From the NCBI GenBank assembly GCA_016932615.1, contig JAFGCN010000007.1, forward strand, positions 19,189-83,188: 64,000 nucleotides of DNA, in the 5' to 3' direction. Made by a program: the position numbers and the translations under genes. This DNA comes from Candidatus Aenigmatarchaeota archaeon (GTDB lineage: Archaea; Aenigmatarchaeota; Aenigmatarchaeia; QMZS01). This document shows, in pieces, positions 27,318-52,973 of this stretch (its first letter is position 1; every line of letters starts with the position of its first letter). Below the pieces are notes generated by a model that saw only the letters and a program-made list of their open reading frames with translations, was not told the origin of the DNA and ran no database searches.

Positions 27318-27962
27318 CTAATCTTGGCCGTGCTTTTGACGCTCTTTTTTCTCAAGCTCCTCGCGGATTGATTCATACTGCCCAAAATTCTTGTGAACTG
27401 TTTTTTGTAGTGGCTCTGGTTTTGGCTCTATATCGGCCTTTATCGGATTTTTTTCATAATGCCTGTATTCAAGCCGTGGGACTTTATGCTTTTTGCCTTT
27501 TACTTCCTTTTTGATTTTTGCCAATTCATTTAGGATTATCAAAAGCCCCGGAATGAATATGAAAAGCGCAAAGCCCATTGGAGTCCTTACGAAATTTCCA
27601 AGATGACCCAGGTAAGGAATACAAAATATTACTATTCCTTCAACACTGCCGGGCCGTGTTACTTCCATGTCAGGGTCCTCATTTGCATCACCCTTCGTCA
27701 AAAAGCCATCCGGCGTAACGTTTATAATCCTGTGGGTAGTGTAGGTTCCGGCGCTTCCAAAAGTAATAATGTCGCCGATTTTGAGGTCTGACGCATTTAC
27801 CCTCGCTATGGCAACAACATCCCCTACGTTAATGGCTGGAGACATCGAGCCGGAAACAACAGTCCTGAACTGAATGCCCTGGGATTGCAGGCCAAATGCA
27901 ATGAATGCTGCAAGAGCAAGAACAGCTACTGCTGCGCCAAATTTAAGTATATTGCTTGCCAT
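27318..27962 (-). CDS. signal peptidase I (archaeal/ER-type S26B; SipW-like)
   Basis: N-terminal TM, VVSGSMSP (SGSMxP catalytic Ser box), TKGDAN(E)D box; placed directly upstream of four SipW-cognate substrates. Confidence 0.8.
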   Translation of the reverse strand: MASNILKFGAAVAVLALAAFIAFGLQSQGIQFRTVVSGSMSPAINVGDVVAIARVNASDLKIGDIITFGSAGTYTTHRIINVTPDGFLTKGDANEDPDMEVTRPGSVEGIVIFCIPYLGHLGNFVRTPMGFALFIFIPGLLIILNELAKIKKEVKGKKHKVPRLEYRHYEKNPIKADIEPKPEPLQKTVHKNFGQYESIREELEKKERQKHGQD

Positions 27963-28011
27963 AATATAATATACCTCAAGTTACCCTTTCCTTTATCAGG
28001 CCTATTCAAAA

Positions 28012-29205
28012 CTACTTCTCATTTAGCGAGCTGCACTTAAAGTTAAAGTTATTGAGTCTCTGCTCAGCATAAAAAGACAAGTCTGCAATGAGCGAATCCG
28101 TCTGGGCGACATTGTTCTGGTGAGACGTTCCGTCGCACTCAGCGCTGTAGCCGCTGACGGTTATATGCCCAAAGCACCAGAGAAGGCCTACCCTCTTTGG
28201 AACATTGCTTCTAAGAACCATGTTGTTTGTCGGGTCCGCTATTGGAAAGGAGGTAACCTTGTTGCTTATTGGCCCAATGAAAAGCTTTGTGTCGCCCAGG
28301 CCGTATTTTCCATCCTTAACTGTGTCAATCCACCCAAAAAGCTCTATGAAACCGGAAAGCTCGCCCTGGTCTTCGCCCGAAGTCGTGTCGCCTGCCTCTT
28401 CTTCGGGGTCAATGAGGCCGTTTTCAAGGTCCTGTTTGTTCCTGACAACAAGGCAAGCCCATGCCTCCTGGCCACTGACTGAAATCGAAAAAAGCCCCTC
28501 ACCAGTGTCTCCCGGCTTAACGTCTTCCACTATGAAGGTCGGCTTTCCTTCGATGTCGATGCCGTACCCCCCGCATGACTCCTCAGTCAGATTAATCCGG
28601 TACAAAAGCCCTGCCGTATTCCTGGTCGGGTCGGGAAACCCAGCCCGGTTTTTAACCTTTATCTCAATTGTATTTTCTCCTGCTTTCATCCTTCCAAGAA
28701 GGTTGTAAGTGCGAACCGACCCGTAATTTGTGTTTAAAACGCTTGCGCCTACCAAAAGCCCATTGACCCTAAGCTCATAAGTGTTGTCCGCGGCGAGTTC
28801 AATCATCGCGTATTTCGGCGGAACCGTAAGAGTAACCTTTCTTACAAAAGTATAAGTCTCGTCCCGGCTGGGATTTTCAACATAATAGCTTTTCCATATC
28901 CATTTCGCTCCGGGGATGCTGGTCCAGGCGGGATTTCCGGAGTATGCCTCAACTGCGTTTTCTCCGGTTTCCTTTACGGTGTCCTCCTCACTGCTTGTGA
29001 TAATCTGGTAGCAGGCCTCCGGGTTGGGCGAAGGAAGCAGATTCACGTTAAGAGTAAATGGCTGGGATGAAAATCCACTCCCAGACATTATCGAGTCAAC
29101 TGAAAAAGCGCCGGTAACATTCTCCATGCTCCCAAAAGCCAGGGCAAGAATTCCCACTGCAAGAATGCCTGCAAAAACGACGAGATACTGGGAAGAGAGT
29201 CTCAT
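28012..29205 (-). CDS. secreted protein with SipW-cognate (TasA/camelysin-type) signal peptide
   Basis: N-terminus ...ILALAFGSMENVTGAFSVDSIMSGSG carries the TGAFxxD core of the SipW-cognate signal. Confidence 0.55.
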   Translation of the reverse strand: MRLSSQYLVVFAGILAVGILALAFGSMENVTGAFSVDSIMSGSGFSSQPFTLNVNLLPSPNPEACYQIITSSEEDTVKETGENAVEAYSGNPAWTSIPGAKWIWKSYYVENPSRDETYTFVRKVTLTVPPKYAMIELAADNTYELRVNGLLVGASVLNTNYGSVRTYNLLGRMKAGENTIEIKVKNRAGFPDPTRNTAGLLYRINLTEESCGGYGIDIEGKPTFIVEDVKPGDTGEGLFSISVSGQEAWACLVVRNKQDLENGLIDPEEEAGDTTSGEDQGELSGFIELFGWIDTVKDGKYGLGDTKLFIGPISNKVTSFPIADPTNNMVLRSNVPKRVGLLWCFGHITVSGYSAECDGTSHQNNVAQTDSLIADLSFYAEQRLNNFNFKCSSLNEK

Positions 29206-29323
29206 AAACTATCTTGAAAAACCGCCAATATATACTTTACCTCTCGTAAGTGTCCTGTAATGCTTCTGCACGCCGTCCGTTGTTTCATTCATGCAGAAAA
29301 AACAAATGGCAGAGCCGACTTGA

Positions 29324-30280
29324 TTAAGGCGATTGGCAATGCGCAATGCCCCAAAGAATTGCTTCAAGCCCGCTGTAATCCGACGCACTGAAGAAATAGG
29401 TCGTGTCGGTGGGTATGTTTGTCCTGTACCAGTCTATCCACCCGGCATTTGTCCCGACGAATACGACATATATCTTTATTCCTGCGGCCTTTGCGGCATC
29501 GGCCTGGGCTATTGCGGCGGCCTCACCCGTTCCAGGGTTGCCTGGCTTGTTGGGCATCTTGTCGGCGATAAGTATCATGTAATCCGGCGACCCGGCATCA
29601 TTTCGGTCGTTAGGTCCTGTAAGCTCAGTTGTCGCGTTCAGAAGGCCTCCGTAAAGGTTTGTGTTGCTGCCTGTGTCAAGCAGCTCTATTGCCGCGTCGA
29701 TTGCCGCCCTGTCGCCGGTTAAAATCTGGTCCAGGGTTCCCTCATCAGCATAACTTGCCTGGCCTATGTGCGGCCCATCCAGCTCTGGAGTCAGGTTATC
29801 AACAAAGGAATGAGCTGCTGCCTTTAAGGTGTCCATATCGCCGGACGTGCCTCCAGACCTTTGAAACACAAGCATCACGTCAGGCCTTGCCGAGCACATG
29901 CTTGGAAGAGTGCAGTCCGACAGGCAATTCACGCCATTATTGACGCCGTCATCGCACTCCTCAGGCCCGTTTACTGTTCCGTCGCCGCAGTATTCATCGG
30001 TTATGCATTCATCCCAAAGGCAGCTTTCTGTGCAACCCCTCATTCCGGAGTATCCTAACAGAGTTGTGCAAGAGCCCAGGTTTCCGTCGCACTCTTCGCC
30101 TTCTTCGACCTCCCCGTTTCCGCAAGAAGAAGGAAAAACTGCCGCCACCGAAAATGAATTCCCCGCAGAGCTTTCCGTGTCAGTTATAAAAGCGCCTGTC
30201 GGCTTTTCGGCCGTGCCTGAAAGGATAAGTAAAGCTAGACCAACAAACATTACACCGGCTAAAACTCTTGAACTCACCAT
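29324..30280 (-). CDS. SipW-cognate secreted protein with Myxococcus-type Cys-rich repeats and vWA domain
   Basis: PTGAFITDTESSAGNSFSVA signal; CGNGEVEEGEECD and CGDGTVNGPEECDDG repeats; vWA-like LVFQRSGGTSGD ... LIADKMPN ... IYVVFVG. Confidence 0.6.
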   Translation of the reverse strand: MVSSRVLAGVMFVGLALLILSGTAEKPTGAFITDTESSAGNSFSVAAVFPSSCGNGEVEEGEECDGNLGSCTTLLGYSGMRGCTESCLWDECITDEYCGDGTVNGPEECDDGVNNGVNCLSDCTLPSMCSARPDVMLVFQRSGGTSGDMDTLKAAAHSFVDNLTPELDGPHIGQASYADEGTLDQILTGDRAAIDAAIELLDTGSNTNLYGGLLNATTELTGPNDRNDAGSPDYMILIADKMPNKPGNPGTGEAAAIAQADAAKAAGIKIYVVFVGTNAGWIDWYRTNIPTDTTYFFSASDYSGLEAILWGIAHCQSP

Positions 30281-30409: not shown

Positions 30410-31189
30410 CTAATCTACTGGGTTGCAAAGGAATTTGCCGTTGTTTCTTGCCTGGACTACCTCAAAGGAGATGTCTGCTGTGTAGCTGTCTGTCTGGACG
30501 CTGTTGTCTATAGGCAGGCCATTGCAGTATCCATCACCTTCGATGGTTCCAAGGCACCATGCTGCGCCTATAAAGTATGTCTTGGTTGGGTCCAATGGCT
30601 CGCCATCAATTCCGCCCACGTTGTTCTCTGCTGCGTCTGCAAGAGTCCACTTGACTGTTGAAATTGCGTCTGCCGTGCCTGCTGTCAAAAGCTCATCGCA
30701 CTCCACCTGATAGATGTTGTCTCCAGGGACTGCATCGTCTTCATCATCGCAAATGTCTGCCCAAATCATGAAGTTGAGGTTTGCTCCAAGCTCTCCATCT
30801 GTATCAGACTCGCAAGTTGGCTCATCATCGATTTCTGGCTCGTTGCATCCGTTTTCATCATCGCTTGTCTTTGTAAGAACCACGCATCCCCATGCAGGGT
30901 TTGTGTCAACGTGGATGCTTATCGTGTTCTCACCATAGTCGCCGGGCTTAAGGTCTGCGTAGTTGAAAAACTTCTGTGCCTCAAGGTCAGTGAGTTCCCA
31001 GCTGCATTCCTCCTTAGGATCTCCATTGTAAGTACAGGTGCTGTCAATCAACAGGTCAATTTCTCCGGCAGTAAATGTGTTGCCCTGTGATGTCTCAGTG
31101 TCAGAGAAGAATGCTCCTGTCATGCTTCCGCCAATAGCTGCTGCTGTTAGTCCGATAACTAGTAAACTGACTAGTATTTTTGTATTCAT
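30410..31189 (-). CDS. SipW-cognate (TasA/camelysin-like) secreted protein
   Basis: MNTKILVSLLVIGLTAAAIGGSMTGAFFSDTETSQGNTFTAGEIDL matches SipW-cognate signal consensus (GAFFSD.E.S..N.F.AG.LDL). Confidence 0.65.
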   Translation of the reverse strand: MNTKILVSLLVIGLTAAAIGGSMTGAFFSDTETSQGNTFTAGEIDLLIDSTCTYNGDPKEECSWELTDLEAQKFFNYADLKPGDYGENTISIHVDTNPAWGCVVLTKTSDDENGCNEPEIDDEPTCESDTDGELGANLNFMIWADICDDEDDAVPGDNIYQVECDELLTAGTADAISTVKWTLADAAENNVGGIDGEPLDPTKTYFIGAAWCLGTIEGDGYCNGLPIDNSVQTDSYTADISFEVVQARNNGKFLCNPVD

Positions 31190-31375: not shown

Positions 31376-32815
31376 TTAGTCGCCGTTGCTGCAGTTTGCA
31401 AGATCTTCAAGTATCTCCAGCAAGTCGTTGAAATTCCCTGCGTCAAAGTAGTATGTAGAGTCGGTTGCAATATTTGCCTTGAGCCAGTCGGCATTGTCGG
31501 TGCTAACTCCAACCCCTACGACATATATCTTTGTGCCTCTGCTATCAGCAACATCTGCCTGCGCCTTTGCCATGTTTCTTGGCGTGTCTGGGCTTGTTGG
31601 AAGGTTTGGCTCTCCATCAGTTATTATGACCATGTAGTCCGGGGAGTCTGCGTCATCCCTGTCGTAAGAGGCATCTTCAAGCTCTTGGTTTGCAAGCAAG
31701 ATTCCCTCATAAAGGTTTGTGCTTCCGCCAGGAGATACTGCATCTATTGCCGCGTCGATTGCTGTTTTGTCGCTGGTTAAGTGCAGATCAAGTGTTCCGC
31801 TTGTTGAGAAACTTGTCTGGCCCATATGCGCTCCGTCTGTTTTTGGGTCAAGGGCTGTGACAAATGCGTGGGCTGCGTTCTTCATGGTGTTCATCTCAGT
31901 TGTGTCAATGCTTGCTGATCTGTCGAGAACGGTCATCACGTCAGGCGCTGCCGCGCAGATTCCCGGAAGGGTGCAGTCATTTCGGCATTCGTCATCATTT
32001 ACGTCATTTCCGTCGTCGCATTCCTCGCCCTGTTCAAGAATTCCATTTCCGCACACCGGCTCAGTGCCTGGCACGCAAAGGAAGTTCTCATTATGCCTCT
32101 GCTGGATTGCTTCAAAGGATATGTCTGCCATTACGCTGTCTGTCTGGATGATGTTTCCTGTTTCACTGGGAACGCTCCATGCAACCGCTATGCAGTAGTT
32201 GACTCCGGGTTGGACTGGTTCTCCCGTCAGGGCATCGGCAATTGGCCAGACAAGGTCTGTTGCCTTTGCTCCCTGGACAAGGTACTCATCTATTTCTACA
32301 TCGAAGTCGTTTTCGCAGTCATAATCCCTCCAGATGTCAAAAGACAAAACATCCTGCAGTTCGCCTTCGCCTAATCCTTGGTCGCCGCAGGTGCCATCTG
32401 CCTCATCTTCCGGCTCTGTGCAGCCGTTTTCAGCGTTTGAGAGGCCGGATATTTTTGCGCAAACCCAGGCCGGGTTTGAGGTAACGTGGATGCTTATTGT
32501 GCTCTCGCCATAGTCGCCGGGCTTGACATCACCAAAATTTAGGATTGGCTGTCCGTTCAGGTCCTGGGCAAGCCATGTGCATTCGCATTCTGTTCCAGGA
32601 ACAGGGTAATCATTTCCTCCCTGCCAGGTTCCGTCAACGCACTCGTTTCCATTGTAGTGGCATTCGCTGTCTACAGTAAGGTCAATTTCTCCGGCAGTAA
32701 ATGTGTTGCCAGTTGATGTTTCCGTGTCTGAGAAGAATGCTCCAGTCATTGTGCCGCCAATAGCTATCGCTGTCAGTCCGATAACTAGTAAACTGACTAG
32801 TATTTTTGTATTCAT
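31376..32815 (-). CDS. SipW-cognate secreted protein with Myxococcus-type Cys-rich repeat and C-terminal vWA domain
   Basis: N-terminus nearly identical to 30410-31189 product; CGNGILEQGEECDDGNDVNDDEC repeat; vWA MIDAS VLDRSASI ... ITDGEPN ... IYVVGVG. Confidence 0.65.
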   Translation of the reverse strand: MNTKILVSLLVIGLTAIAIGGTMTGAFFSDTETSTGNTFTAGEIDLTVDSECHYNGNECVDGTWQGGNDYPVPGTECECTWLAQDLNGQPILNFGDVKPGDYGESTISIHVTSNPAWVCAKISGLSNAENGCTEPEDEADGTCGDQGLGEGELQDVLSFDIWRDYDCENDFDVEIDEYLVQGAKATDLVWPIADALTGEPVQPGVNYCIAVAWSVPSETGNIIQTDSVMADISFEAIQQRHNENFLCVPGTEPVCGNGILEQGEECDDGNDVNDDECRNDCTLPGICAAAPDVMTVLDRSASIDTTEMNTMKNAAHAFVTALDPKTDGAHMGQTSFSTSGTLDLHLTSDKTAIDAAIDAVSPGGSTNLYEGILLANQELEDASYDRDDADSPDYMVIITDGEPNLPTSPDTPRNMAKAQADVADSRGTKIYVVGVGVSTDNADWLKANIATDSTYYFDAGNFNDLLEILEDLANCSNGD

Positions 32816-32901: not shown

Positions 32902-33465
32902 TTATCCCTTTATCAGAATCTTATTCTGTGTTGTATCGTATTTTATCCTGATGAGCGTCTGGTTTTCGATAACGCCTCCGTAGATTTCCCAGCCAATCTG
33001 GTCCTGGTCTCCGCAGTCCCCGTCATACTCGTACTCGCCCCCCAATTCATCAACGAGCAGGTAGTTTTGAAGGACTTCGCATCCGCCCTGCGTTTCCATG
33101 ACCTTGGTAAAATCGTACTCGGTCAGCCGGCCAGGGTGAGTCTTCAGAAAAACTTCGCTGCAAACAACGTCTTTTTTCTGGGCGGGTTTTATTGCATCCT
33201 GCCAGCAGATTATCGCGCGCGATGCAAGGTCAATTGCAAGCTGCTGGGTTGTCCTCGGCTCGATTTCTTCAGTCAGTCTTGAAAATCCGCTCGGCTTGCA
33301 CCAGTTCGGCTTGACGCCAATTTTTTCGGTCAGGTAGCAAAAACCGTCACTCATTGCCTGTTGGATTGTATTATTGGTAAAGGCAAGAAGAAGCGCTATT
33401 CCGACAAGCGCGATAATCATTGTCCCAACCAGGTCAAGCTCAAGGCCTTTTGCCATAATAGTCAC
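32902..33465 (-). CDS. class III signal peptide (pilin-like) protein
   Basis: MAKGLELDLVGTMIIALVGIALLLAF N-terminus. Confidence 0.4.
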   Translation of the reverse strand: MTIMAKGLELDLVGTMIIALVGIALLLAFTNNTIQQAMSDGFCYLTEKIGVKPNWCKPSGFSRLTEEIEPRTTQQLAIDLASRAIICWQDAIKPAQKKDVVCSEVFLKTHPGRLTEYDFTKVMETQGGCEVLQNYLLVDELGGEYEYDGDCGDQDQIGWEIYGGVIENQTLIRIKYDTTQNKILIKG

Positions 33466-33487: not shown

Positions 33488-34405
33488 TTATCGCTTGGAG
33501 TCCAGGGACTGGTGAACTAGTATCGGCTCTTCCTTCTCCAGGACATATGTGTATGAAGTCGTGATTTTGAGCGTAAGCTCTACGTCCTGGCCGGAGCTAA
33601 GGTGTGGCGGAGAAATCTTGACAATGCAGTCTCCGGTCTTTCCTCCGCGGAGCCGAGCATTCCTGCACTCGCTGGTGTCAACGCTCCCGACAAGGTTTTG
33701 CCCAAGTGACTCGACTTTGACAGAATCTATCGTAAACTCCCTTGGGTCAGAAGTGTCTCCCTGCGGGTATCCATTATCGATATTTGTAAACTTAAGCGTA
33801 ACTGGAATCTTGTCGTTCGAGCCGCCCACAATGAAAACGTTATCCATCAAGACATCCACGACAATCGGCGCCCTGGAGTTTGAAATTGTCTTTGCCGTAT
33901 CCGGCATAACGCCACGCTCGCGCATCCCCTTGTAGGCATCTTCAGTAAGCGCGTAAACCTTGGCGGTTGTTATGGTTGCATAATCGTAATATATCCTAAC
34001 TCCAGCAGTATAGGTCTCAGTTTCCCCAATCTCCGGAACCCGGACGTTTTTCCAGGTAATTGTGCACGGGTCGCCAATCCGGTTAAGCTCCTCGTTAGGG
34101 GGGTAAAGCTGCGGCTGATTGCACCTCTGCTCGCTTGAGTAGCCAACCCAGGAAAGCCGATAGGGCTTTGCAACAACATTTTCTATGGTCGTGTCACCCA
34201 GGTTCTGAACCTTCAGGACAATGTCTATGGTATCACCGGAACTCACATAGTCATACCCTGAGCCAAAGTCAATAATAGAAAGGCCGCTTCCGTAAGTAAT
34301 GGGCTCATTGTTTGAGCCACCAAAAGACGTGCAGCCGCTTGTTGCCACAACCAGGAGCATCATGAATCCAGCAAAAAAGATATTTTTCATGCTACTATTC
34401 ATCAT
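33488..34405 (-). CDS. secreted protein, paralog of 34395-35282 (possible lipoprotein, SGCT after signal peptide)
   Basis: Signal peptide plus SGCT; shares VVAKP..L.W.G...E..C / YYDY / PVTLKFTN blocks with the adjacent gene. Confidence 0.4.
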   Translation of the reverse strand: MMNSSMKNIFFAGFMMLLVVATSGCTSFGGSNNEPITYGSGLSIIDFGSGYDYVSSGDTIDIVLKVQNLGDTTIENVVAKPYRLSWVGYSSEQRCNQPQLYPPNEELNRIGDPCTITWKNVRVPEIGETETYTAGVRIYYDYATITTAKVYALTEDAYKGMRERGVMPDTAKTISNSRAPIVVDVLMDNVFIVGGSNDKIPVTLKFTNIDNGYPQGDTSDPREFTIDSVKVESLGQNLVGSVDTSECRNARLRGGKTGDCIVKISPPHLSSGQDVELTLKITTSYTYVLEKEEPILVHQSLDSKR

Positions 34406-38408: not shown

Positions 38409-38409
38409 G

Positions 38410-44657: not shown

Positions 44658-45321
44658 ACTCGGGTGGGCTCGGTCCGGAAAAACTCTCTGCAGAAGGAGC
44701 AGAATCCTTTCTGCGCTTTAATCGCCACATTAGTAAAATAGCCAGGATTATTACTAGGAAGATTATTCCAATCACCCAATAATTGGTTTCCTGTGTTTCG
44801 CCATTCTCTATGTCTGGAGCGTCTTCACCACTCTCTGGACCGATCTCTAAAGATGACCCGGGGTTTTCAGAAACTATGCAGGCAGGAGAGTACATTGAAA
44901 CGTCAAGATTCGCCAGAGTACTATTCTGCTCATCATAAATTTTTATCATGGAAGCGTCCCTAAAATAGGGCACAATAAGGGTCTTGTTGAAGCTTTCGAC
45001 GAAATAAGGGCTTCCCGGGTCTTCGCCTTCCCTTGGCGGAGGCGGGAATATGATCTGATTAGTGCCATACCTGAAGGAATAAAGCACTTCCCCCGAGCAG
45101 GAGATGACTTCACAGGTGTGCCCCGACTCCGGCTGAATAAGCCGTTCCGGGAAATACCCTCTGCCAAGCTTAACCGCTGAATAATCCAGCTCGCCCTGGC
45201 TGTAGTGAATATCCACGACATAAATCGTCCCAAAAGCCCCCTGTACAGGGGCAAAACACACCAAAAAAGCAAATAAAGCCCCAAATATCCACGACCCCAT
45301 AACCTTAAACTCAATTTCCAT
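44644..45321 (-). CDS. secreted protein with C-terminal TM anchor
   Basis: signal peptide, C-terminal WVIGIIFLVIILAILLMWRLKRRK anchor. Confidence 0.35.
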   Translation of the reverse strand: MEIEFKVMGSWIFGALFAFLVCFAPVQGAFGTIYVVDIHYSQGELDYSAVKLGRGYFPERLIQPESGHTCEVISCSGEVLYSFRYGTNQIIFPPPPREGEDPGSPYFVESFNKTLIVPYFRDASMIKIYDEQNSTLANLDVSMYSPACIVSENPGSSLEIGPESGEDAPDIENGETQETNYWVIGIIFLVIILAILLMWRLKRRKDSAPSAESFSGPSPPEYGGY

Positions 45322-46759
45322 AGTAATCTAGCTGGCTCTCTATCTGAGCCAGGCAAACCGAACAAAAGCCATACCCTAGGTCCTTCATTATGCAGGAGTC
45401 GCTTGGCCGGTACCAGTTCGTATAGGAACATTCCCTGATGCAATCCATGCCCTGCCCCTCCCAGTCAGTGCAGGAAGGGCTCTCGTCGCAGTTGGGCGCC
45501 TCTTCAGGCATGCTTGTCGGCTGCCCATAGGAGTACTCGTCATAAAGCTTTCCAAAAGCGTGCCCAAACTCATGCACTGCTGCTTTTGTCTCGCTTCTCG
45601 CGACCACAGAAATTCCTTCCGTAATATATCCTCCCCCACCATAGGTCTCGCTGTCAAAGAGAACAATAATCTGGTCAGACGGACACCTCATGGCAAAAGT
45701 CTTTGTTTTTGGAACGTCACAGCAGATGAGCCGTGCAATGCCGGCGCAATTATAGTAGCACCCCAGGTCCCCGGAAAGATTGACCATATAGACATTTATC
45801 TTATTCACATTTTCCTTAAACGGGGAATATGAGAGCAGGGACTCAGTGTGGTTTTGGACATCGCTTCTGAATTTAGACAGGTCTACATAGCCATGCCCGA
45901 CAAAAACCACATTCAGGTTGCTTGATGAAGGACCTGTATGAATAAGGGGGATGCAATATTCCCCAACGGTTTCATTGCCTGCAGAATCTGCAACCCTGAA
46001 CTCCACCCTTGCCTCAGAAGACCTGCCGAAAGCATCATCTACCTTCAAAGTTGCTGTGTGAATTCCCAGGTCCATGCTGGATACCTCAATGACCGATTTG
46101 TTTCCCAGGTGCTTTCCGTCCAGTTCCCAGCCATAATTGTAAGGTGCTTTTCCGCCAGAAATCCACGCCTTAAACGTAATCGTTTCGTCCATTCCATATT
46201 GCGTCCCATTCACGGGAAGAGATATGAGGGCGGTCACATTTCCGGCACTGGAGGTATTTCCTCCGGTATTGCCGTTATCTGAAGAGAATACATTAAGGTC
46301 CCTTACCGATATATACCTTCCATCTGCAACGTAGGAGATTTCCACAAGCGCATCCTTCGCGCCTACAGACCACTTGAGCTTGTCCTGGTCATCATACGAT
46401 TCTGATGTGCAAAAGCTGCAGTTGCCTGTGGAGCAGATATTATTCGGAATCTGCTTGCAATCAAGCTGCTGAGTAACAGTCCTTTCGGTGAAATTCCCTG
46501 TCGCATTGACGATTATTTCTGCGCAAATGTCTGAGGAAGGGTCAAGCCCGCCGCGATGGTTTTCCCAGCAAAGCTCTATCTCTTCAGCAAGCCGTTTTGA
46601 GACATGGCTTGTGTCTCCAAACAAAACATCATCCGCACTCGTGTCAAAAACCCCGGAATACCTTGCGATGAAATAAAACATAATCGCCCCAATTACAAGC
46701 GCTATTATAAGGTACATATAATCCGTAAGCGTGTCCAGTGCGCCCTTCATCTTAGCCAA
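45311..46759 (-). CDS. M64 (IgA-peptidase-like) zinc metallopeptidase with pilin-like N-terminus
   Basis: VHEFGHAFGKLYDEY matches M64 HExxH...DEY signature; N-terminus MKGALDTLTDYMYLIIALVIGAIMFYF. Confidence 0.55.
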   Translation of the reverse strand: MAKMKGALDTLTDYMYLIIALVIGAIMFYFIARYSGVFDTSADDVLFGDTSHVSKRLAEEIELCWENHRGGLDPSSDICAEIIVNATGNFTERTVTQQLDCKQIPNNICSTGNCSFCTSESYDDQDKLKWSVGAKDALVEISYVADGRYISVRDLNVFSSDNGNTGGNTSSAGNVTALISLPVNGTQYGMDETITFKAWISGGKAPYNYGWELDGKHLGNKSVIEVSSMDLGIHTATLKVDDAFGRSSEARVEFRVADSAGNETVGEYCIPLIHTGPSSSNLNVVFVGHGYVDLSKFRSDVQNHTESLLSYSPFKENVNKINVYMVNLSGDLGCYYNCAGIARLICCDVPKTKTFAMRCPSDQIIVLFDSETYGGGGYITEGISVVARSETKAAVHEFGHAFGKLYDEYSYGQPTSMPEEAPNCDESPSCTDWEGQGMDCIRECSYTNWYRPSDSCIMKDLGYGFCSVCLAQIESQLDYYGN

Positions 46760-47639
46760 TAAGGACTATCTCAGTCACGCTTTCGTCTTCAGCAACGCCA
46801 ACGTGCCGGGCAACCCCATCTCCAACAACTGTGACCTTAACAAGCTTAATCAGCTTTCCGTACGAAGATTTTACCCCCTCCACTTCGGTTGCTTCAATGT
46901 CAATGCCCTGGTCGACTATATACTGGCTTGCAAGCTCAATTGCCCGCTCATCCGACAAAGCCATTTCCGCATACTCACATGCGTGGCTTTCCTCATCGCA
47001 TACCTCACCAGGCATGAAGCACTCACAGTCAAGGCAGCAGTTGTCAGGCCCCTCATAAAGCTCACACTTGCCGTTTCCGCAAACAGAGATCACGCAGTCC
47101 TTTTCCACATCAGAGCAGTAAGCTCCTTCGCTGCAGGTGCAGTCCCCCGGAGTATTTACGCAGTTTTCGCCAAAGGATTTCTCACAGATTCCGTTTACGG
47201 CTGCCTTCTTGGTCTCTGTGGCATTGGTCTGGACAACGGTATCGTTCTTCACAGGTTCCTGGGTCTGAGTGGATTCGTCCACGCAAAGCTTTTGCGCCTC
47301 AGAGCATATCTTGCTGCCTGTGCATTTACAGTCCTCAGAAGTAACGCAGTTTTCCCCATATTCTTTCTGGCAAATCCCATCACCCTCATGGCTTTCAGGA
47401 GAATCAGACCCGCCCGAGAAAAATATGAAATAAATCATGACCAGCACCACAAGGCCAATGACTACATAGATGACCTTGGTATAATCTTTCGAGCCGCTTT
47501 GGGCTTGACTAGATGCCTCTGGAGTTGGCATTGAAGGATAATCTTCGTATTGATTTATCAAAGTACCCATAATAGAGACCAAGGAATATATATTATATCT
47601 GACACTGCAGAAGTATATGGTAGCTCGTGCTCCAAGCAA
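46752..47639 (-). CDS. membrane-anchored Cys-rich repeat protein
   Basis: TM helix VIYVVIGLVVLVMIYFIFF then two DGIC.K.FGENCV...DC.C repeats. Confidence 0.35.
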   Translation of the reverse strand: MLGARATIYFCSVRYNIYSLVSIMGTLINQYEDYPSMPTPEASSQAQSGSKDYTKVIYVVIGLVVLVMIYFIFFSGGSDSPESHEGDGICQKEYGENCVTSEDCKCTGSKICSEAQKLCVDESTQTQEPVKNDTVVQTNATETKKAAVNGICEKSFGENCVNTPGDCTCSEGAYCSDVEKDCVISVCGNGKCELYEGPDNCCLDCECFMPGEVCDEESHACEYAEMALSDERAIELASQYIVDQGIDIEATEVEGVKSSYGKLIKLVKVTVVGDGVARHVGVAEDESVTEIVLIG

Positions 47640-47681: not shown

Positions 47682-50087
47682 TTATGCGCTAAACCCCTTC
47701 TTTATCTTCAGCGTTGGGTCTCCAAGCAGGCAGTTGATGTGGTAGTGGTACATCTGGCCATAAGGACAGTTATACTTTGGGAAATATGCGTTTTTGCCTT
47801 CCCTGTAGGCATCCCCAATCCGGACGCCCTCCTTAAAGCGTAATGCAATCTCAACATACAAAGAGCCAATGGAATTGTCTCCACCCAAGACATAGCAACT
47901 TCCGAGGGAGCCCAGATTGTTATCTGTGCTTCCGAAAAAAACCGCGCCTCCATTCTTAAGGAAAGTCATTGCAATCGAGTCTGAAGTTGTTTGCTTCAGC
48001 GCAAGGTGCGCCCCGCCACAGGCCATAGTCATCCAGACTGTATTCTTGACACTTATGCCATTGACAAAGCTTGGGCCTACATTAAAGCCCCCTCCATAAT
48101 AAAGATCCTCTCTCGCCGGGCCAGGACCATGTGCAAGAATCATGACAAAGCCCTTGTTGCTTGTGCTTGATGGGCCAAGATTTCCACAGCATCCGCTGCA
48201 GGCCTGGCATGAGGAGCCATAAACGGCCGAGCAAAAACACTTGCCGGAGTTCCATTGTCGATTGTCGAGACCACCACAACCCATAATCGGCGAAACCTTA
48301 TTGGATAAGGATACGCCGCCAGACTTGTGAAGCCCTATTGCAGTATCAAGGGCATTCAGGATTACGTCCATATCTCCCTTCGCTGGATCAGGGAACCTTC
48401 CAACAGAAATATCCATCAAGTACTTTCCGCCATCCCCATTGTCGCTTATGTCACCATATGGGGCGTCAGAGCCGGTCGAGGCAACTGAAGTCTGAGGGAA
48501 CCTTGCATGGCCTCCAATAATTATCAGGTACTTCGAATCAAGCTGCTTTATCAGGGGAACCGTCGTCGCCCGGATGTTTCTCCAGTCCTTGGGGCTAGTG
48601 ACTTTCTTTCCGCAGATATCTTCAACTTCATCGCTGTCAAGGTATAAAAACATTGAGCCGAGGCCATCTGAAGAAAGGGCGGACCGGAAGTCCTCAATCT
48701 TGTCCTCAAGCCGGCTTATGTCCCCTTCAGAATAAACCCCCATATTGGCCTTGATTGCGACAATCAGGACGTCCGCTCTGTCAACACATTCTCCCTCATC
48801 CTCGCTCCACATGTAGCCCAATGGACAGCAGTGGCCTCCCGTACAGGAAAGACCTGAGGAATTATCACACTGGCTGGAGCAGGCGCACTTTTCTCCCTCC
48901 TTCAGCCCCATTTCCGTAGAGCATCCATAGGAATTTCCAAGTGAGGCATATGAAGGGCAGCATACCATCCCTAAGTTTTCGCAGGTCACTCCTTGTGCAG
49001 GGCAATCCTTGCTGCAGGTTTTGCAGTCCTCCATCGCTTCCACAGAACACTTTCCATTGCCGCAGCATTCCGTAAGGTTATTGAAGCCCTGAAAGCCCTT
49101 GGGGCAGTCGGAGTCATTGTCTTCCCTCTCACAACTCATAGAGCAAAATCCGTTGCACGTCTTGTCGCAGACATAGCAGGCACTCGACAAAAGGCCGCCG
49201 GGGTTTCCATCAGACTCGACGCCATCGCAGTCAGGGTCGCACATAGTCAGGTTCTCCGCGCAGTCCGGATCACAGACTCCGTCCACAACACCCATGCTGT
49301 CCGGGTCACAAATCCCGTCAGGCGAATTCACGTTCTGCCAGGCGCAGTCCGGGTCGTATGCCCTCTGCGGGTCAAAAAAGTTATTGTAGCAGTCAAGGTC
49401 ACAGATTCCGTCCATGTCGACGCCCGATATATTTCCATTCCCATCCGAGTCAACGCAGTCGATGTCACAGGGTGTGCCATCACCGGTGCCCTCCTGGTAG
49501 CAAAGGGGGTCGCATACCCCCTCCATATAAGAGCACATAACTTCACAATTGTCATCATAAGGGTCGCATCCTTCTTCAGTAACCGTAATTATAATATCAC
49601 CCTGCGGCGCTCCCTCAAACTTAAGCTCAAGCTTGTCCCACATTTTTATCGGGTAATTTCCCGGATTGCCCCGGATTATTACTGCCCCAATTCCAATCGG
49701 CTCAAGGTCACGCCGGTAGAATATCTGGCTGGCATTTCGCCCAAGCTCCATGCTCTTCATAAGGACAGCTATATCCTCTTTGGTAAGCGAAAAGCTGGTC
49801 TGGACACTTGTCTGGTTTGATGAGCATTTTCCGTCATACATTGCCTGAAGAATCGCTTCCATATCCTTTTGCGCTACCAGTTTACCATTGTATTCCTGGC
49901 AAATATCATAGCTTTTCCCGAATGCTATCGAGCCAGCTGCCTCCCTAAAAACAGAAGCAAACTTTTCGATAGGGGATCCGATTGCTTCGGAGCCAACAGA
50001 AGTAAGAAATCCGATTGAAACCGCAATAGAAACAAGGACTATGAGCATCAAAGCAACAGACTCAAGCTCCATAATATATCGAACCAA
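47682..50087 (-). CDS. large Cys-rich DGICDPDC-repeat surface protein with C-terminal clan-CD (clostripain/gingipain-like) cysteine peptidase-like domain
   Basis: 801 aa; hydrophobic N-terminus; CDPLC/CDIDC/CDLDC/CDPDC repeats; C-terminal ...MILAHGPGP...WMTMACGGAH suggests His-Gly / Ala-Cys catalytic dyad. Confidence 0.4.
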   Translation of the reverse strand: MVRYIMELESVALMLIVLVSIAVSIGFLTSVGSEAIGSPIEKFASVFREAAGSIAFGKSYDICQEYNGKLVAQKDMEAILQAMYDGKCSSNQTSVQTSFSLTKEDIAVLMKSMELGRNASQIFYRRDLEPIGIGAVIIRGNPGNYPIKMWDKLELKFEGAPQGDIIITVTEEGCDPYDDNCEVMCSYMEGVCDPLCYQEGTGDGTPCDIDCVDSDGNGNISGVDMDGICDLDCYNNFFDPQRAYDPDCAWQNVNSPDGICDPDSMGVVDGVCDPDCAENLTMCDPDCDGVESDGNPGGLLSSACYVCDKTCNGFCSMSCEREDNDSDCPKGFQGFNNLTECCGNGKCSVEAMEDCKTCSKDCPAQGVTCENLGMVCCPSYASLGNSYGCSTEMGLKEGEKCACSSQCDNSSGLSCTGGHCCPLGYMWSEDEGECVDRADVLIVAIKANMGVYSEGDISRLEDKIEDFRSALSSDGLGSMFLYLDSDEVEDICGKKVTSPKDWRNIRATTVPLIKQLDSKYLIIIGGHARFPQTSVASTGSDAPYGDISDNGDGGKYLMDISVGRFPDPAKGDMDVILNALDTAIGLHKSGGVSLSNKVSPIMGCGGLDNRQWNSGKCFCSAVYGSSCQACSGCCGNLGPSSTSNKGFVMILAHGPGPAREDLYYGGGFNVGPSFVNGISVKNTVWMTMACGGAHLALKQTTSDSIAMTFLKNGGAVFFGSTDNNLGSLGSCYVLGGDNSIGSLYVEIALRFKEGVRIGDAYREGKNAYFPKYNCPYGQMYHYHINCLLGDPTLKIKKGFSA

Positions 50088-50125
50088 TATCCAAATATAA
50101 GTACTAGCAAGACCTTAAGCCGGAC

Positions 50126-50671
50126 CTAAATAATCTCCAGGCGATGGTCAAATGCATTGTACTTGACAATTATTGTTACCTCTTCACCGGAAATGTCGCC
50201 AATCTTCCACAGGAGGCGATTTGAAGCTCCACAGTCCGTTCCCGACTTCTCCACATCCAAGAAATTGTTTGGGATTGTATCGCAAAGCCCCCTTTCCTCG
50301 AGAAGTGAAGTAAACGTTTCTTCCGTTATAGTTCCGCTTACCTCCCAGACAAAAAGCTCATAGCAGGTGTAAGTCATTCCGCCCATCCCCTCGTCATTAT
50401 TTTCCCAGCACTCCTCTGCATACTGCAGGAGCGTGGCATCGTCAAGAGGGTACTGGAGTTCCTGCCTTGCCGAAGTGTGCTTAAGTCCGCACTGGTCAAG
50501 TGATGGCTTCAGGTGGTGAGGAATTGGAAGGGCTGAAATTGCATTGCCTATGCCGCAAAAAGTGTTTCCGGTTGCGCCCGGGAGCATGCCCTCTATTATC
50601 AGCAAAAAGAAAGCAACGGCAAACAGGGCAACGATAAGCTCAGCTATTGTTTTAAATGCAAGCTCCACCAT
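50126..50671 (-). CDS. class III signal peptide (pilin-like) protein
   Basis: MVELAFKTIAELIVALFAVAFFLLIIEG N-terminus. Confidence 0.4.
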   Translation of the reverse strand: MVELAFKTIAELIVALFAVAFFLLIIEGMLPGATGNTFCGIGNAISALPIPHHLKPSLDQCGLKHTSARQELQYPLDDATLLQYAEECWENNDEGMGGMTYTCYELFVWEVSGTITEETFTSLLEERGLCDTIPNNFLDVEKSGTDCGASNRLLWKIGDISGEEVTIIVKYNAFDHRLEII

Positions 50672-50707
50672 AACTTAACAGCATTTTATTAGTCTCTAGA
50701 TTATCTG

Positions 50708-51142
50708 TCAGCTAACAAAAACCTGCCTTCCGGTGTTGAGATACTCTATCCTTAGGTGGTCTCTTGACAGGTTGGAAGGAAGGTAGACCTTCTCTTGGAG
50801 CTCAATCCGCAAGAGCTGCCTTATCTCAAGAGGGCTTGCAGAAAGTCCTATTTCAGAGCCAGATGTCAGAAGGTAGCAAACTGTATCCTCCCGCTGGCTT
50901 TCCGGAACCTTCAAAATAGCATCATAGCAGTTTTCAACATACCCTGCAATATCCCCGCTCGAAAAAGATTTCTCCTGAATAATTTTTGGAAATTCCTGGA
51001 CTCTGCCAGAAGGGTTTAAAAGATTCTGAATGCGGCCCTTGAGGTCGTTATGCCCTACTATGAAATATGCATTCACTATACCTGCAACAGCAACAAGAAC
51101 TAAAAAAAGAATCACCGTTTCCCGGGTAAGTTCACACTTCAT
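50708..51142 (-). CDS. pilin-like small protein, paralog of 51146-51586
   Basis: N-terminal TM; shared C-terminal block CYDA...DTVCY.L. Confidence 0.4.
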   Translation of the reverse strand: MKCELTRETVILFLVLVAVAGIVNAYFIVGHNDLKGRIQNLLNPSGRVQEFPKIIQEKSFSSGDIAGYVENCYDAILKVPESQREDTVCYLLTSGSEIGLSASPLEIRQLLRIELQEKVYLPSNLSRDHLRIEYLNTGRQVFVS

Positions 51143-51145
51143 AGT

Positions 51146-51586
51146 TTAGCTTACAATTATTTCATCCCCCAATTCCTTGAACTCTATCTTAAGGTGTGTT
51201 TGCGTCAGGTCTGTTTTGAAGTGCAAGTCTTGCCTAATCTTTGCCGAAACTGCACTCCTTATCGCATCGACACTTGTAAAGCCGGAAAAATCGGAATCTG
51301 CCAGAAGGACATAGCAAACAGTATCCTTTTGCTCAACCTCTTCTACCTCTGTCAGGGCATCATAGCAGCTTTCTATATACTGGGCGATGCCTCCTGGAGA
51401 AAAAGTGCTTTGCTCATATGTTTTTGGAAAGTCTGTCTGCAGCTTTTTCTTGTCGGGTCCAAAAAGGTCTTTTACCGCGTTTTTCGAGTCGCCAGAAAAC
51501 CTCATGAAAAGCCCTATTACGATTGCCGCAACAACAAGTATTATCAGAAATTTGACAACCATGTCCAGCGCCAATTCGCCTTTCAT
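51146..51586 (-). CDS. pilin-like small protein, paralog of 50708-51142
   Basis: MKGELALDMVVKFLIILVVAAIVIGLFMRF classic prepilin-like N-terminus. Confidence 0.45.
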   Translation of the reverse strand: MKGELALDMVVKFLIILVVAAIVIGLFMRFSGDSKNAVKDLFGPDKKKLQTDFPKTYEQSTFSPGGIAQYIESCYDALTEVEEVEQKDTVCYVLLADSDFSGFTSVDAIRSAVSAKIRQDLHFKTDLTQTHLKIEFKELGDEIIVS

Positions 51587-51620
51587 AATCTAAAGGCCTT
51601 TTTTAAAATTAGTTTAGACA

Positions 51621-52973
51621 TCATTTGCCTGCAATGGCCTGGTTCGAGTAAACCGCCTTCCTGACGCCGCCTGCGTGATAAGTCACTTTAGCAATGTTAA
51701 ACTGGTAAGTGCCGCCAAGCCCGACTTTTGGAACTATCGTGTAGGTAAATACTCTGGCTTCCCTCGGCTGGATGCTTGGAATCTTCCAGACAATCTTGAT
51801 ATCGTCGCCTTTCCTGTAAAAACCCACCGGCTCGACTCCCGAAAAGCGGCGCTTTATCCTGAAAATCGGCTGGACGAAGTCCTCAATGGTAAGGTCCCGG
51901 ATTTCGCGCCAGGAACGGTTTGTAACCTCAAGGCAGATTCTTATCTCAGTGTCACTTTTTATGTGTACGATTTTTCCCATGACGCTTTTTTTGACCTCCA
52001 CTTCAGTCCTGAGTATCATGGCAAGCAGCACAACTAGGCAGATAGCCACGAAAAAGCCGATAAAGATGAGGTGGTAATTGTACTGGTGGGTAAATGTCCT
52101 GGTCTGCCCTCCTGAGACGGAAAGTTCCCAGATATATTTTGTAACTCCGCCCTCCCGCACCTTTGTAAACGGCTCTGAAGAGCTTATAAGCGGCTCAAGG
52201 TAGCTTTCTGTCTCCAGCTCGTAAATTTTGGTTTCAGTGCCCCTTCCGTTGTTGACCAGTGTCACGGTTGTAACAGATGCGAGCAGGGAATCTTTGGTTT
52301 CCTCGTAGACCTGAAGCTTCGAGCCATATTGCCAGTAGTATGATTCCTGGCCAGAAAAAAGTGCAGTTTCATCCTTGCGGACAGCATAGCTCATCGAGTA
52401 GGTTCCTGTCCCCAGCCCCTCAAAATCCGGAAGGTTGCTAAAGGAATCCCTTCCCGGGCCAATAAGTTCAGTAAACTCTTCAATTGGGGTGTTATTCAGG
52501 GAAAGAACCGCTTCAAGGGCAAGCCCCTCTGTGGTGTAAACGTCCAGCTTAAAGCCATTCTGGTCAAACTTTGCCCCCAGAAGCTCGCTTTTCGGCTCTT
52601 CCGGGACATTAAGCTTAGTCACTTCCAAAAGAATATGGCGGCTCAAGTTGTCCAGCCGGGAAGTTGCCATGATATCGAGGGCATATATGTCAGGCGCCAC
52701 ACTAAGGTCGGGGGCAGCCACAATGCTAACCTCCCTCATTTCGCCCGGCTCAAGGACAACCTGGGAATCGGTTATAAATACCCATACAAACCAGCCCTTT
52801 ACGAAAAGCGAGTAAACAACCGGAGAATCGGACGGATTTGCCAGAGTAACCTTGAAAGAGGTGCTCTTTAGAGGATCCACCTTTACCCAGCTTTCACTAT
52901 CCTCAGCAATGCAAGGGACTATCAGGATGAAAGAAACCGCCAGCAAAAGTATAAGGTAAGCCCTAAACTCCAT
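51621..52973 (-). CDS. secreted/membrane-anchored surface protein, hypothetical
   Basis: 450 aa; signal peptide, central TM LIFIGFFVAICLVVLLAMIL. Confidence 0.35.
   Translation of the reverse strand: MEFRAYLILLLAVSFILIVPCIAEDSESWVKVDPLKSTSFKVTLANPSDSPVVYSLFVKGWFVWVFITDSQVVLEPGEMREVSIVAAPDLSVAPDIYALDIMATSRLDNLSRHILLEVTKLNVPEEPKSELLGAKFDQNGFKLDVYTTEGLALEAVLSLNNTPIEEFTELIGPGRDSFSNLPDFEGLGTGTYSMSYAVRKDETALFSGQESYYWQYGSKLQVYEETKDSLLASVTTVTLVNNGRGTETKIYELETESYLEPLISSSEPFTKVREGGVTKYIWELSVSGGQTRTFTHQYNYHLIFIGFFVAICLVVLLAMILRTEVEVKKSVMGKIVHIKSDTEIRICLEVTNRSWREIRDLTIEDFVQPIFRIKRRFSGVEPVGFYRKGDDIKIVWKIPSIQPREARVFTYTIVPKVGLGGTYQFNIAKVTYHAGGVRKAVYSNQAIAGK

Follow-up and report, generated by a model that had tools for sequence, protein, structure and literature searches.

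Two probable surface modules of a Candidatus Aenigmatarchaeota archaeon: a pilin-like subunit operon with enzyme-bearing members and a SipW/TasA-like cassette

Archaea of the DPANN group are explicitly among those in which lineage-specific 'dark matter' pilins, fast-evolving and unseen by known profiles, have been noted (PMC6393860, PMC4858521), and archaeal pilin loci are commonly apart from the loci encoding the ATPase and the TadC platform (PMC4858521). This report deals with a stretch of 64,000 nucleotides (the window) from a Candidatus Aenigmatarchaeota archaeon (assembly GCA_016932615.1, contig JAFGCN010000007.1, positions 19,189 to 83,188 of the forward strand). Between positions 27318 and 52973 of the window, 22 open reading frames (ORFs) of 144-1036 amino acids tile the whole span, and they were numbered g01 to g22 in plus-strand order from the ORF listing. 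The region probably consists of two independent surface modules: module B (g22 to g06, 32.9-53.0 kb), which would be an Aenigmatarchaeota-specific operon of type IV filament subunits, and module A (g01 to g05, 27.3-32.8 kb), a cassette resembling tapA-sipW-tasA.

Several described systems are close to these modules. The Sulfolobus bindosome is made of sugar-binding proteins bearing class III signals, which are assembled by BasEF, an ATPase/platform pair of type IV pilus kind; it resembles module B in that functional proteins of non-filament type carry class III signals, whereas its cargo consists of solute-binding proteins and that of module B of an adhesin and peptidases, and no Bas homologue was identified, though no search was aimed at one. 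In the archaeal 'dark matter' loci of type IV pili (Makarova 2016, 2019) three traits of module B are found: N-termini of class III type, a cluster headed by a T2SSF (TadC/FlaJ) platform gene, as in the relatives of module B, and a pilin operon that may sit apart from the ATPase/platform locus. On the other hand, the families of g06/g19, g21, g14, g11, g09, g12 and g18 match no Pfam or NCBIfam pilin family, no ATPase adjoins module B, several of its subunits are enzyme fusions, and its named homologues are nearly all from Aenigmatarchaeota. The kind of system is known, DPANN 'dark-matter' pilin islands having been flagged in general terms (PMC6393860), and no description of this conserved cluster, of its divergent platform family or of protease-module swapping was found in the literature.

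Modular type IV pilins have been described in bacteria, for instance PilB from Streptococcus sanguinis, in which a pilin module is joined to a von Willebrand factor A (vWA) domain (Raynaud et al. 2021, PMC8179133), and the 2021 survey of modular pilins covered bacteria only (PMC8179133). The product of g10 is like PilB in its class III leader ending in Gly, its hydrophobic alpha-1 helix, its acidic residue near +5 and its vWA domain with a metal ion-dependent adhesion site (MIDAS), and g12, g16 and g18 share the bacterial design of a functional module grafted on a pilin. Nevertheless, g10 belongs to another domain of life, has no sequence relation to the IPR012902 pilins, and in its AlphaFold2 (AF2) model the alpha/beta vWA region comes after the long N-terminal helix. 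The cargo of module B also departs from that of the bacterial proteins, being mainly peptidases (C25 and M64, with S8 and metzincin-like ones in orthologues) together with a transglutaminase-like core. By analogy, the grafting of modules onto a conserved scaffold would be the 'modular pilin' principle known in bacteria, here with mainly peptidase cargo.

The genes of module B are the following:

g06, 32902..33465, minus strand: small class III-type pilin-like protein of the g06/g19/g16-N family
g07, 33488..34405, minus strand: lipobox-type (…SGC) secreted protein, paralogue of g08
g08, 34395..35282, minus strand: lipobox-type secreted protein
g09, 35337..36350, minus strand: class III-type protein of 337 amino acids with 11 Cys
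g10, 36403..37626, minus strand: modular pilin, class III N-terminus, 56-residue alpha-1 helix and vWA domain with MIDAS motif DxSxS
g11, 37623..38408, minus strand: class III-type protein, the most conserved partner of g10
g12, 38410..40905, minus strand: class III N-terminus, conserved N-domain, CDPDC-type Cys repeats and probable C-terminal transglutaminase-like (Cys-His-Asp) core
g13, 40944..44054, plus strand: Sec-signal protein, NosD/right-handed beta-helix, Ig-like domains and C-terminal transmembrane (TM) anchor
g14, 44088..44657, minus strand: small class III-type pilin-like protein
g15, 44644..45321, minus strand: Sec-signal protein with C-terminal TM anchor
g16, 45311..46759, minus strand: modular pilin, class III N-terminus, g19/g06-like pilin domain, Ig/PKD-like linker and M64 zinc peptidase
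g17, 46752..47639, minus strand: signal-anchor protein with Cys-rich ectodomain, without a [KR][GA] site
g18, 47682..50087, minus strand: N-terminal hydrophobic helix (ME…, no K-G), N-domain, CDPDC repeats and predicted C25-like clan CD cysteine peptidase
g19, 50126..50671, minus strand: small pilin-like protein of the g06 family, the window copy beginning MVELAF… with no K-G site
g20, 50708..51142, minus strand: paralogue of g21 with K-C replacing K-G
g21, 51146..51586, minus strand: class III protein of 146 amino acids, candidate major subunit
g22, 51621..52973, minus strand: Sec-signal protein with internal TM segment (about 300-322), first gene of the block, adjoining the 16S rRNA gene

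A scan of a genome collection with the g10 family gave 16 loci, and the proteins of the region were then mapped onto related loci, referred to here by L numbers. In nine families (g06, g09, g10, g11, g12, g14, g16, g19 and g21) a [KR][GA] pair is conserved directly before a hydrophobic stretch of about 20 residues, and this holds across orthologues only 25-50% identical, with G/A (and S) interchange at position -1; the entire leader is often just Met-Lys-Gly (MKG). An acidic residue is conserved at +4 to +6 in g10, g12 and g21. Exchange of G and A at -1 and an acidic residue at +4 to +6 are traits of prepilin-peptidase substrates (PMC8179133). Family by family (a slash follows the [KR][GA] pair), g06 begins KG/LELDL plus a hydrophobic stretch and its orthologues MKGLA…, the consensus of the g06 and g19 families being MKG[LIF]A; the orthologues of g19 show MKG[IF]A in L005, L010 and L016, and MVSISL in L023. 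The g09 product has RKG/VAYSVV (orthologues KKG[VI][AS][YF]SV), g10 KGQxFE (KAQ in some orthologues), g11 KGQMSFTVKP (orthologues MK[GAS]Q[LMI]S[YF]), g12 a conserved KG[DES]xxLSE, and g14 KG/MASWIW (orthologues MKG[IT]…W[IV]W), while MKG/ELALD of g21 is conserved in 14 homologues with the consensus MKG[EDM][LM]ALD. A crude class-III-like rule, [KR][GA] and then a hydrophobic stretch, flags 8 of the 22 ORFs of the region against 5 of the 44 elsewhere in the window (Fisher p = 0.023), g22 being a Sec-type false positive among the eight and g21 being missed by the threshold. The site kept across orthologues, the G/A swaps and the frequent MKG leader thus bear out the class III signals that an earlier reading made from the sequence alone (the sequence-only reading) had proposed. 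Outside the region the window encodes canonical archaeal type IV pilins with 'KGVSPVVA' N-termini, one of them with a Pilin_N match above the gathering score (62127-62624, minus strand) and two with weaker Pilin_N matches (1487-1903 and 61576-62169, both minus strand); therefore the genome must process class III signals, and its class III-signal proteins fall into no fewer than two unrelated sets.

Structure prediction was applied to g10 and g21. The AF2 model of g10 (pLDDT 82.5) shows an uninterrupted helix over residues 4-59 (56 residues) and then an alpha/beta domain, and that of g21 (pLDDT 77.8) a helix over residues 3-42 (about 40 residues) with a small alpha/beta head behind it. Type IV pilins universally share a long N-terminal helix, alpha-1 (PMC8179133), and the modelled helices of g10 and g21 appear to match it and not a Sec signal peptide. 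The top Foldseek matches of g10 are an integrin beta I-like domain, BatB and vWF-A1 (E 7e-7 to 1e-4), and G5, Q6, E9 together with D133, S135 and S137 are invariant in 16 homologues, so that the protein has both the Rossmann-like alpha/beta fold of vWA domains and the DxSxS motif of the MIDAS. Because of its N-terminal helix, its vWA-like fold neighbours and its invariant MIDAS residues g10 is considered a vWA modular pilin. The sequence-only reading had called it a 'vWA-pilin', and rightly so, though Pfam misses it; a distant orthologue in L022 matches Pfam VWA at 4e-12. In the window and in L020 no small class III gene of the cluster comes before g21, which in L010, L023 and L031 lies near the cluster head. 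The family of g11 has only 129 representatives among 1.84 billion proteins.

The 16 loci of the g10 family comprise 10 from Aenigmatarchaeota/Aenigmarchaeota, 4 from metagenome-assembled genomes (MAGs) labelled 'uncultured archaeon' and 2 short contigs binned as Nanohalarchaeota and Methanosarcinales. The closest relative, with loci L020 and L006, has proteins 36-67% identical to those of the window. In L006/L020 the order is Rpr2, S19e, 16S rRNA, g22, g21, g19, g18, a gene for 228 amino acids and g17, and on from there g16, g14, g13 (opposite strand), g12, g11, g10, g09, g08 and g07, after which housekeeping genes follow at once (GatE-like, PHP and IleRS by sequence); the corresponding position lacks g06 and g01-g05. 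As order and flanks are kept in L006/L020, g22-g07 represents a vertically inherited block beside the 16S rRNA gene. Across related loci the recurrent order is g06, g21, g19, g18, g16, g14, g12, g11, g10, g09, which from g21 to g09 equals the minus-strand order of the window. The series g21-g19-g18-g16-g14-g12-g11-g10(-g09) was found in L010, L023 and L031, and subsets or variants of it in L005, L006/L020, L016/L018 and L022. Wherever the contig reaches far enough, g12, g11 and g10 occur together as a trio, and g11 lies upstream of g10 in every locus extending so far; L016 and L018, the most distant loci, have a dissimilar class III protein where g12 would be. Besides, ten related loci have g09 as the immediate neighbour behind g10 (in L004/L005 it is on the opposite strand), g14 is kept by position, before the g12 orthologue or its replacement, except in L031, and g06 is in other lineages the first gene after the platform gene (L010, L023, L031). 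Named homologues of the cluster families are nearly all from Aenigmatarchaeota, and the source-named members are all annotated as 'hypothetical protein'.

In two hot-spring loci of Aenigmatarchaeota, L002 and L003, phmmer matched only g10-g12 and g18, and six small 'MKG' genes present there are analogous to, not detectably homologous with, the small genes of the region. Between the g12-g11-g10 trio and this run of six genes lies a gene for a rhomboid intramembrane protease (11534-12208 in L002, 11939-12586 in L003), and L003 has a second, weak rhomboid match at 15792-16730. Regarding the two short contigs, L011 (Nanohalarchaeota label) and L012 (Methanosarcinales label) agree in gene order, and their proteins have nearly the same N-termini. 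It is probable that at least one of them is a DPANN contig placed in the wrong bin, and the Methanosarcinales label of L012 could hint at host association.

The sequence-only reading had also stated that no assembly machinery is present in the window and that it must lie elsewhere. Pfam searches of the larger ORFs, a Walker-A regular expression and tblastn with the platform protein gave no Walker-A secretion ATPase, T2SSF or A24 peptidase in the window, which agrees with that statement, and in relatives the cluster is headed by a T2SSF gene. This polytopic platform gene (about 700 amino acids) immediately precedes the cluster on the same strand in L010, L016, L018, L022, L023 and L031, and its family has 114 homologues, every source-named one from Aenigmatarchaeota. 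Nine of 30 members match Pfam T2SSF (best E 4.5e-9; E 0.0018 for the L010 copy), and by sequence the protein is predicted to be a divergent platform of the FlaJ/TadC/PilC type (T2SSF). A search of the PDB with the platform profile gave no match, and the member list of the family contains no JW727 locus tag, JW727 being the prefix of the genome studied here. In L032 a 30%-identical platform member adjoins a T2SSE ATPase and further ORFs of the KKAQ/KKG type. In L022, L023 and L031 no ATPase turned up in the 10 kb preceding the platform gene, and no prepilin peptidase was seen in the window or in the related loci. FlaG, FlaI and FlaJ have been reported in most Aenigmarchaeota MAGs (PMC8407114). 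Since the window encodes Pilin_N pilins, FlaG/I/J occur in these MAGs and pilin and ATPase loci are often apart, a location of the machinery elsewhere is the normal expectation. As side observations, the T2SSE ATPase of L032 (5268-9077, 1269 amino acids) contains an intein bearing a LAGLIDADG endonuclease, and a free-standing LAGLIDADG gene lies near the platform gene of L018 (1448-2245).

Several members of module B carry modules beyond the pilin-like part. The products of g12 (831 amino acids, 69 Cys) and g18 (801 amino acids, 52 Cys) contain acidic Cys repeats of the type DG(I/V)CDP(D/A)C, with 12 and 4 C[DN]x[DEA]C units respectively; these repeats matched no Pfam family, and they might bind calcium or form disulfide-knotted stalks. 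In the C-terminus of g12 the residues GFCGDH…RH…DAT are invariant in 6 orthologues. Transglut_core matches the L023 orthologue with 28.2 bits, over the gathering threshold of 23, and the same segment of the window copy with 16 bits (E 0.015), below that threshold; against the PDB only the transglutaminase-like protease LapG (4u65) was obtained, under threshold (E 0.33 by sequence, 0.07 by profile). A transglutaminase-like core is the probable identity of this C-terminus. In g18, Peptidase_C25 gives a partial match at 9.2e-9 (35.4 bits against 23), limited to profile positions 263-373, and the ILAHG and MACGG motifs supply the His-Gly and Ala-Cys catalytic dyad of C25 and clan CD, so a C25-like peptidase domain is predicted from this partial match; the sequence search of the PDB with g18 gave no match. 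The g18 family keeps the N-domain, and the Cys repeats at least in the window, L005 and L020, and the catalytic module varies among orthologues: C25 in L005 (2.5e-11), an S8 subtilase in L023 (33 bits, over the gathering threshold) and weak metzincin-type matches in L020 and L010. The product of g16 matches Peptidase_M64 (9.7e-24, 84.5 bits against 26) with an intact HEFGH at residue 396, as required for M64, and its N-domain is homologous to g19 (6.8e-6). Its orthologues have 153-216 amino acids and only the pilin-like domain, too short for M64, with the exception of L031 (712 amino acids), which suggests that the Ig-like linker and M64 were added to g16 in the genome of the window. In L005 a leucine-rich repeat lipoprotein is inserted in the cluster. 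The module swaps in g18, the gain of M64 in g16 and the insertion in L005 indicate that the scaffold accretes and swaps functional modules.

The remaining genes of module B show various degrees of conservation. Within the region blastp recognised the paralogue groups g06/g19 (1.8e-13) with the N-domain of g16, g07/g08 (41% identical), g12/g18 and g20/g21 (34% identical, 8e-31), in addition to g02/g04/g05 with g03 joined through its vWA domain. FFSGC orthologues of g07 and g08 are present in L006, and g20 is absent from L020, which has a single copy. The plus-strand gene g13 (1036 amino acids; NosD 9e-42, Beta_helix 4e-27, TM at 944-974) is kept at equal place and orientation in L006/L020. Hydrophobic segments are found at both the N- and the C-terminus of g15, and similar slots in L018, L020, L023 and L031 are occupied by Sec-signal proteins of 187-228 amino acids without sequence similarity. 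In g17 the TM segment is at 51-81 and the orthologues in L005 and L006 begin near MAVLSDQYREYP; its true start is likely Met24. For g22 no family match was obtained; an orthologue 36% identical occupies the equal place in L020.

Module A follows g06 on the other side of the region and consists of these genes:

g01, 27318..27962, minus strand: archaeal/ER-type signal peptidase I (SipW-like), last gene of the SipW cassette
g02, 28012..29205, minus strand: secreted protein with SipW-cognate-like N-terminus (…TGAFSVDS), C-terminal ~200 amino acids paralogous to g04/g05
g03, 29324..30280, minus strand: SipW-cognate-type signal, Cys-rich acidic repeats and vWA domain
g04, 30410..31189, minus strand: TasA/camelysin-type signal protein, candidate fibre subunit
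g05, 31376..32815, minus strand: g04-like domain, DUF4215 Cys repeat and vWA domain

The product of g01 reaches 97.4 bits with TIGR02228 (cut-off 51.85) and 93 bits with the Bacillus SipW model, under its cut-off of 190; it has a weak Pfam S26 match and the motif SGSMSP. The signal proteins beside it are related to one another. The g02 product matches g04 at 4e-21 and g05 at 1e-19 (blastp), has no Pfam or NCBIfam match and shows a weaker SipW-cognate signal than g03-g05; homologues of it are present in L029. That of g03 (N-terminus TGAFITDTESSAGNSF, in which the TGAFxTDTE motif was recognised by eye) matches Pfam VWA at 3.4e-8 and is 48% identical to the C-terminus of g05. The g04 protein reaches 22.4 bits with TIGR04088 (cut-off 19), is 49% identical to residues 1-249 of g05, and is matched by the Peptidase_M73 and TasA models in residues 4-52 only, which is the N-terminal signal region; the sequence search of the PDB with it gave no match. 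In g05, VWA (7.9e-20), DUF4215 and TIGR04088 (22.2 bits) are all recognised. An ER/archaeal-type signal peptidase I adjoining TIGR04088 proteins is what characterises a SipW/TasA-type system, and this is the arrangement of g01-g05. Similar units are found in the metagenome contigs L028 and L029, where 2-3 paralogues with 'MNKK…FSDTETS..GN.F.AG.IDL' N-termini are followed by a homologue of g01 (41% identical; 181 amino acids in L028, contig-truncated in L029). Because the cassette recurs alone in L028/L029 and is absent here in the closest relative, g01-g05 is an independent, self-contained SipW/TasA-like cassette (Sec plus signal peptidase I route), separate from the pilin-like cluster.

The layout of g01-g05 and of the L028/L029 units is like that of tapA-sipW-tasA from Bacillus (PMC9245690), in which a SipW-type peptidase adjoins TIGR04088 proteins. 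In comparison with that operon and with archaeal TasA-like pili, two of the four substrates here have a C-terminal vWA domain and Cys-rich repeats, and the match of g01-g05 to TasA fibres is confined to the N-terminal signal region and does not include the TasA jelly-roll. In the Pyrobaculum operon for archaeal bundling pili (ABP) no dedicated peptidase was found (PMC9245690), whereas one is present beside g02-g05. The part of the cassette that is observed is this pairing of four SipW-cognate-signal proteins, two of them vWA-ended, with a dedicated signal peptidase. The g02-g05 products would then form or decorate a TasA-like donor-strand fibre, and the cassette would presumably yield a second fibre or matrix, TasA-like and with vWA-tipped parts.

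For module B the gene content, the conservation of the N-terminal motif, the synteny, the T2SSF linkage in relatives, the vWA fold and the domain assignments are observations, and the following mechanism is proposed on their basis. The proteins would be subunits of a type IV pilus-like filament or a pseudopilus. They would be inserted in the membrane by Sec, a prepilin peptidase would trim the very short leader (often M-K-G) after [KR][GA], and the remaining hydrophobic N-terminal helix would hold each subunit in the membrane until polymerisation. A T2SSF-family platform and a FlaI/T2SSE-type ATPase, encoded outside the window, would polymerise the subunits through their alpha-1 helices. In this filament g21/g20 would be the likely major subunit and g06, g19, g14, g11 and g09 minor ones, while g10 (vWA), g12 (transglutaminase-like), g18 (C25) and g16 (M64) would act as modular pilins displaying an adhesin and hydrolytic or cross-linking enzymes; g18, which offers no site for cleavage, might serve as an uncleaved anchor or as a terminator. 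The products of g13, g15, g17 and g22 and the lipoproteins g07/g08 could be accessory Sec-dependent surface proteins of the lineage.

Several observations weigh against a type IV filament. The g18 family starts ME(I/L)… without K-G (MEI… in all four orthologues with a readable N-terminus), and g19 (MVELAF) and g20 (K-C) of the window have no Gly/Ala cleavage site. Pfam gave no Class_IIIsignal or Pilin_N match at E <= 10, either with the N-terminal 80 residues of ten proteins or with full proteins, the NCBIfam scan of g06-g21 gave no match, and the strict FlaFind hexamer rule would presumably pass few of the proteins of the region. In the structure search the head of g21 had no structural neighbour among solved pilins and archaellins beyond helix-driven noise, and an ATPase adjoins the homologous cluster in 0 of 20 related loci, the sole ATPase link being the distant platform paralogue of L032. 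Ordinary signal-anchored ectoproteins, that is, uncleaved type II anchors with tethered adhesins and proteases unrelated to type IV machinery, would be consistent with the lack of pilin profile matches, with g17, g18, window g19 and g20 having no cleavable K-G/A and with a window devoid of machinery. Nevertheless, this explanation is very improbable, given that [KR][GA] stands exactly at the hydrophobic start in nine families over deep divergence, often as the whole MKG leader, that the acidic residue at +4 to +6 is conserved in g10, g12 and g21, and that a T2SSF platform gene is found time and again beside the cluster and on its strand. It has also to be considered that class III proteins processed by type IV filament machinery could be displayed in a short envelope-embedded structure, similar to a bindosome or a short pseudopilus, instead of a long pilus. 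Four of the approximately 11 pilin-like proteins are bulky enzyme/adhesin fusions (400-830 amino acids), many distinct 'minor' subunits accompany a single small duplicated candidate for the major one, the separate canonical Pilin_N pilins could form the real pili, and no ATPase is dedicated to the cluster. However, the sequence level does not tell long from short filaments, the 146-amino-acid subunit near the operon head resembles a major pilin, and bacterial modular pilins enter true pili (PMC8179133), so a short display of this kind seems unlikely, though a serious alternative.

The sequence-only reading had described the region as one 26-kb island, and on this point it did not hold: two unrelated modules are present instead, the g01-g05 cassette being apart and absent at this position in the closest relative. 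A conserved housekeeping S-layer locus in relatives had been named as the finding that would speak against an island; the locus is indeed conserved, but the S-layer part fails, and an S-layer locus was rejected in view of the pilin-like character of the proteins and the absence of any S-layer-like family. The idea that the region was acquired horizontally as a genomic island (a mobile element or a recent transfer) and was inserted beside a tRNA gene would find some support in the intron-containing tRNA directly beside g01 (26993-27183, minus strand; 37.9 bits with Rfam, the 191-nt span implying a long intron; the call is from Rfam, ARAGORN having found no tRNA in the window), in the SipW cassette missing at the corresponding position of the nearest relative and in cassette homologues of similar layout in unrelated metagenome contigs. 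However, order and flanks of g22-g07 (16S rRNA, Rpr2, S19e) are kept in a relative approximately 50% identical, taxon-named homologues are nearly all from Aenigmatarchaeota, and the GC content of the region (0.479) is near that of the rest of the window (0.464). Pfam scans gave no integrase, transposase or recombinase domain in the region, no tRNA-derived direct repeat of at least 13 nt was found, and an integrative element at the tRNA was rejected on these grounds. Such an origin can therefore be given hardly any credence; a local gain is conceivable for the g01-g05 cassette at most.

The proposed type IV filament operon is of interest because the way in which DPANN attach to and gain access to their hosts is largely unknown, and there is no cultured system for Aenigmarchaeota. 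The pilin-like cluster constitutes a conserved set of candidate attachment or attack proteins, all of them now 'hypothetical', and it allows a prediction to be made, namely cleavage at K-G/A and then assembly by the divergent T2SSF platform. A role in host attachment or in envelope attack and degradation is plausible from the domains encoded and fits DPANN biology. It is a speculative, though conceivable, idea that Aenigmatarchaeota and a few neighbouring DPANN lineages build an undescribed 'protease-armed pilus', which attaches to the host envelope and locally degrades or remodels it. If so, the conserved subunits would be equipped with a vWA adhesin, a transglutaminase-like enzyme and a lineage-swapped protease (C25, S8 or metzincin-like, with M64 added here), and the swapping of protease modules would reflect adaptation to different hosts; exchange at a fixed operon position is the pattern expected of an interface under host-driven selection. 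The cluster would also give the bacterial modular pilins an archaeal counterpart, with enzymes as the grafted modules. From a practical point of view, profiles of g10, g11, g12, g21 and the platform family could be used to annotate public MAGs, in which each family has over 100 hypothetical proteins.

As for the setting of the region, 21 of its 22 ORFs are on the minus strand (binomial p = 1.1e-5, as expected of operons), g13 (40944-44054) being the only one on the plus strand. The sequence-only reading had counted 23 of 24 genes on the minus strand; the bias stands and the counts are slightly too high, since no intergenic gap is roomy enough for a further gene. Gaps in 27318-52973 go from -14 to 186 nt overall, with -14 to 54 nt within two sub-blocks and 49-186 nt among g01-g06. 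The gene content it listed (signal peptidase, SipW-cognate proteins, vWA, Cys-repeat giants, beta-helix, M64) is present in every item, and its idea of a small-genome archaeon was right, the source being a Candidatus Aenigmarchaeota MAG (DPANN). The g10 product (407 amino acids, 36403-37626) is 100% identical to NCBI JW727_01265 and g21 corresponds to locus tag JW727_01320, which fits the count of 12 genes from g10 to g21 if the tags step by five.

An archaeal 16S rRNA gene at 53182-54636 (plus strand) adjoins the g22 side of the region. It stands alone, and since the next gene downstream (54745-55383) encodes an S-adenosylmethionine (SAM) methyltransferase, the 16S and 23S genes appear to be unlinked; the ORFs listed inside the 16S gene are spurious. 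Two ORFs outside the region, 23282-23602 and 56499-56837 (both minus strand; 106 and 112 amino acids), have 'MKG' plus hydrophobic N-termini and no family match, and from these N-termini they are possible stand-alone pilin-like genes; in L020 a homologue of 56499-56837 adjoins the 16S gene. Two paralogues with YcaO domains (21966-23168 and 25736-26932, plus strand) lie on either side of a helicase gene, a short way upstream of the tRNA and the SipW cassette. The window also encodes a single-chain restriction-modification enzyme of the Eco57I/MmeI type (type IIG-like; 969 amino acids, 11209-14118, minus strand) and a HydABC-like cluster (17558-20813, minus strand) made up of an [FeFe]-hydrogenase large subunit (Fe_hyd_lg_C 5e-96), a NuoF-like and a NuoE-like protein, the presence of which is notable in an archaeon.

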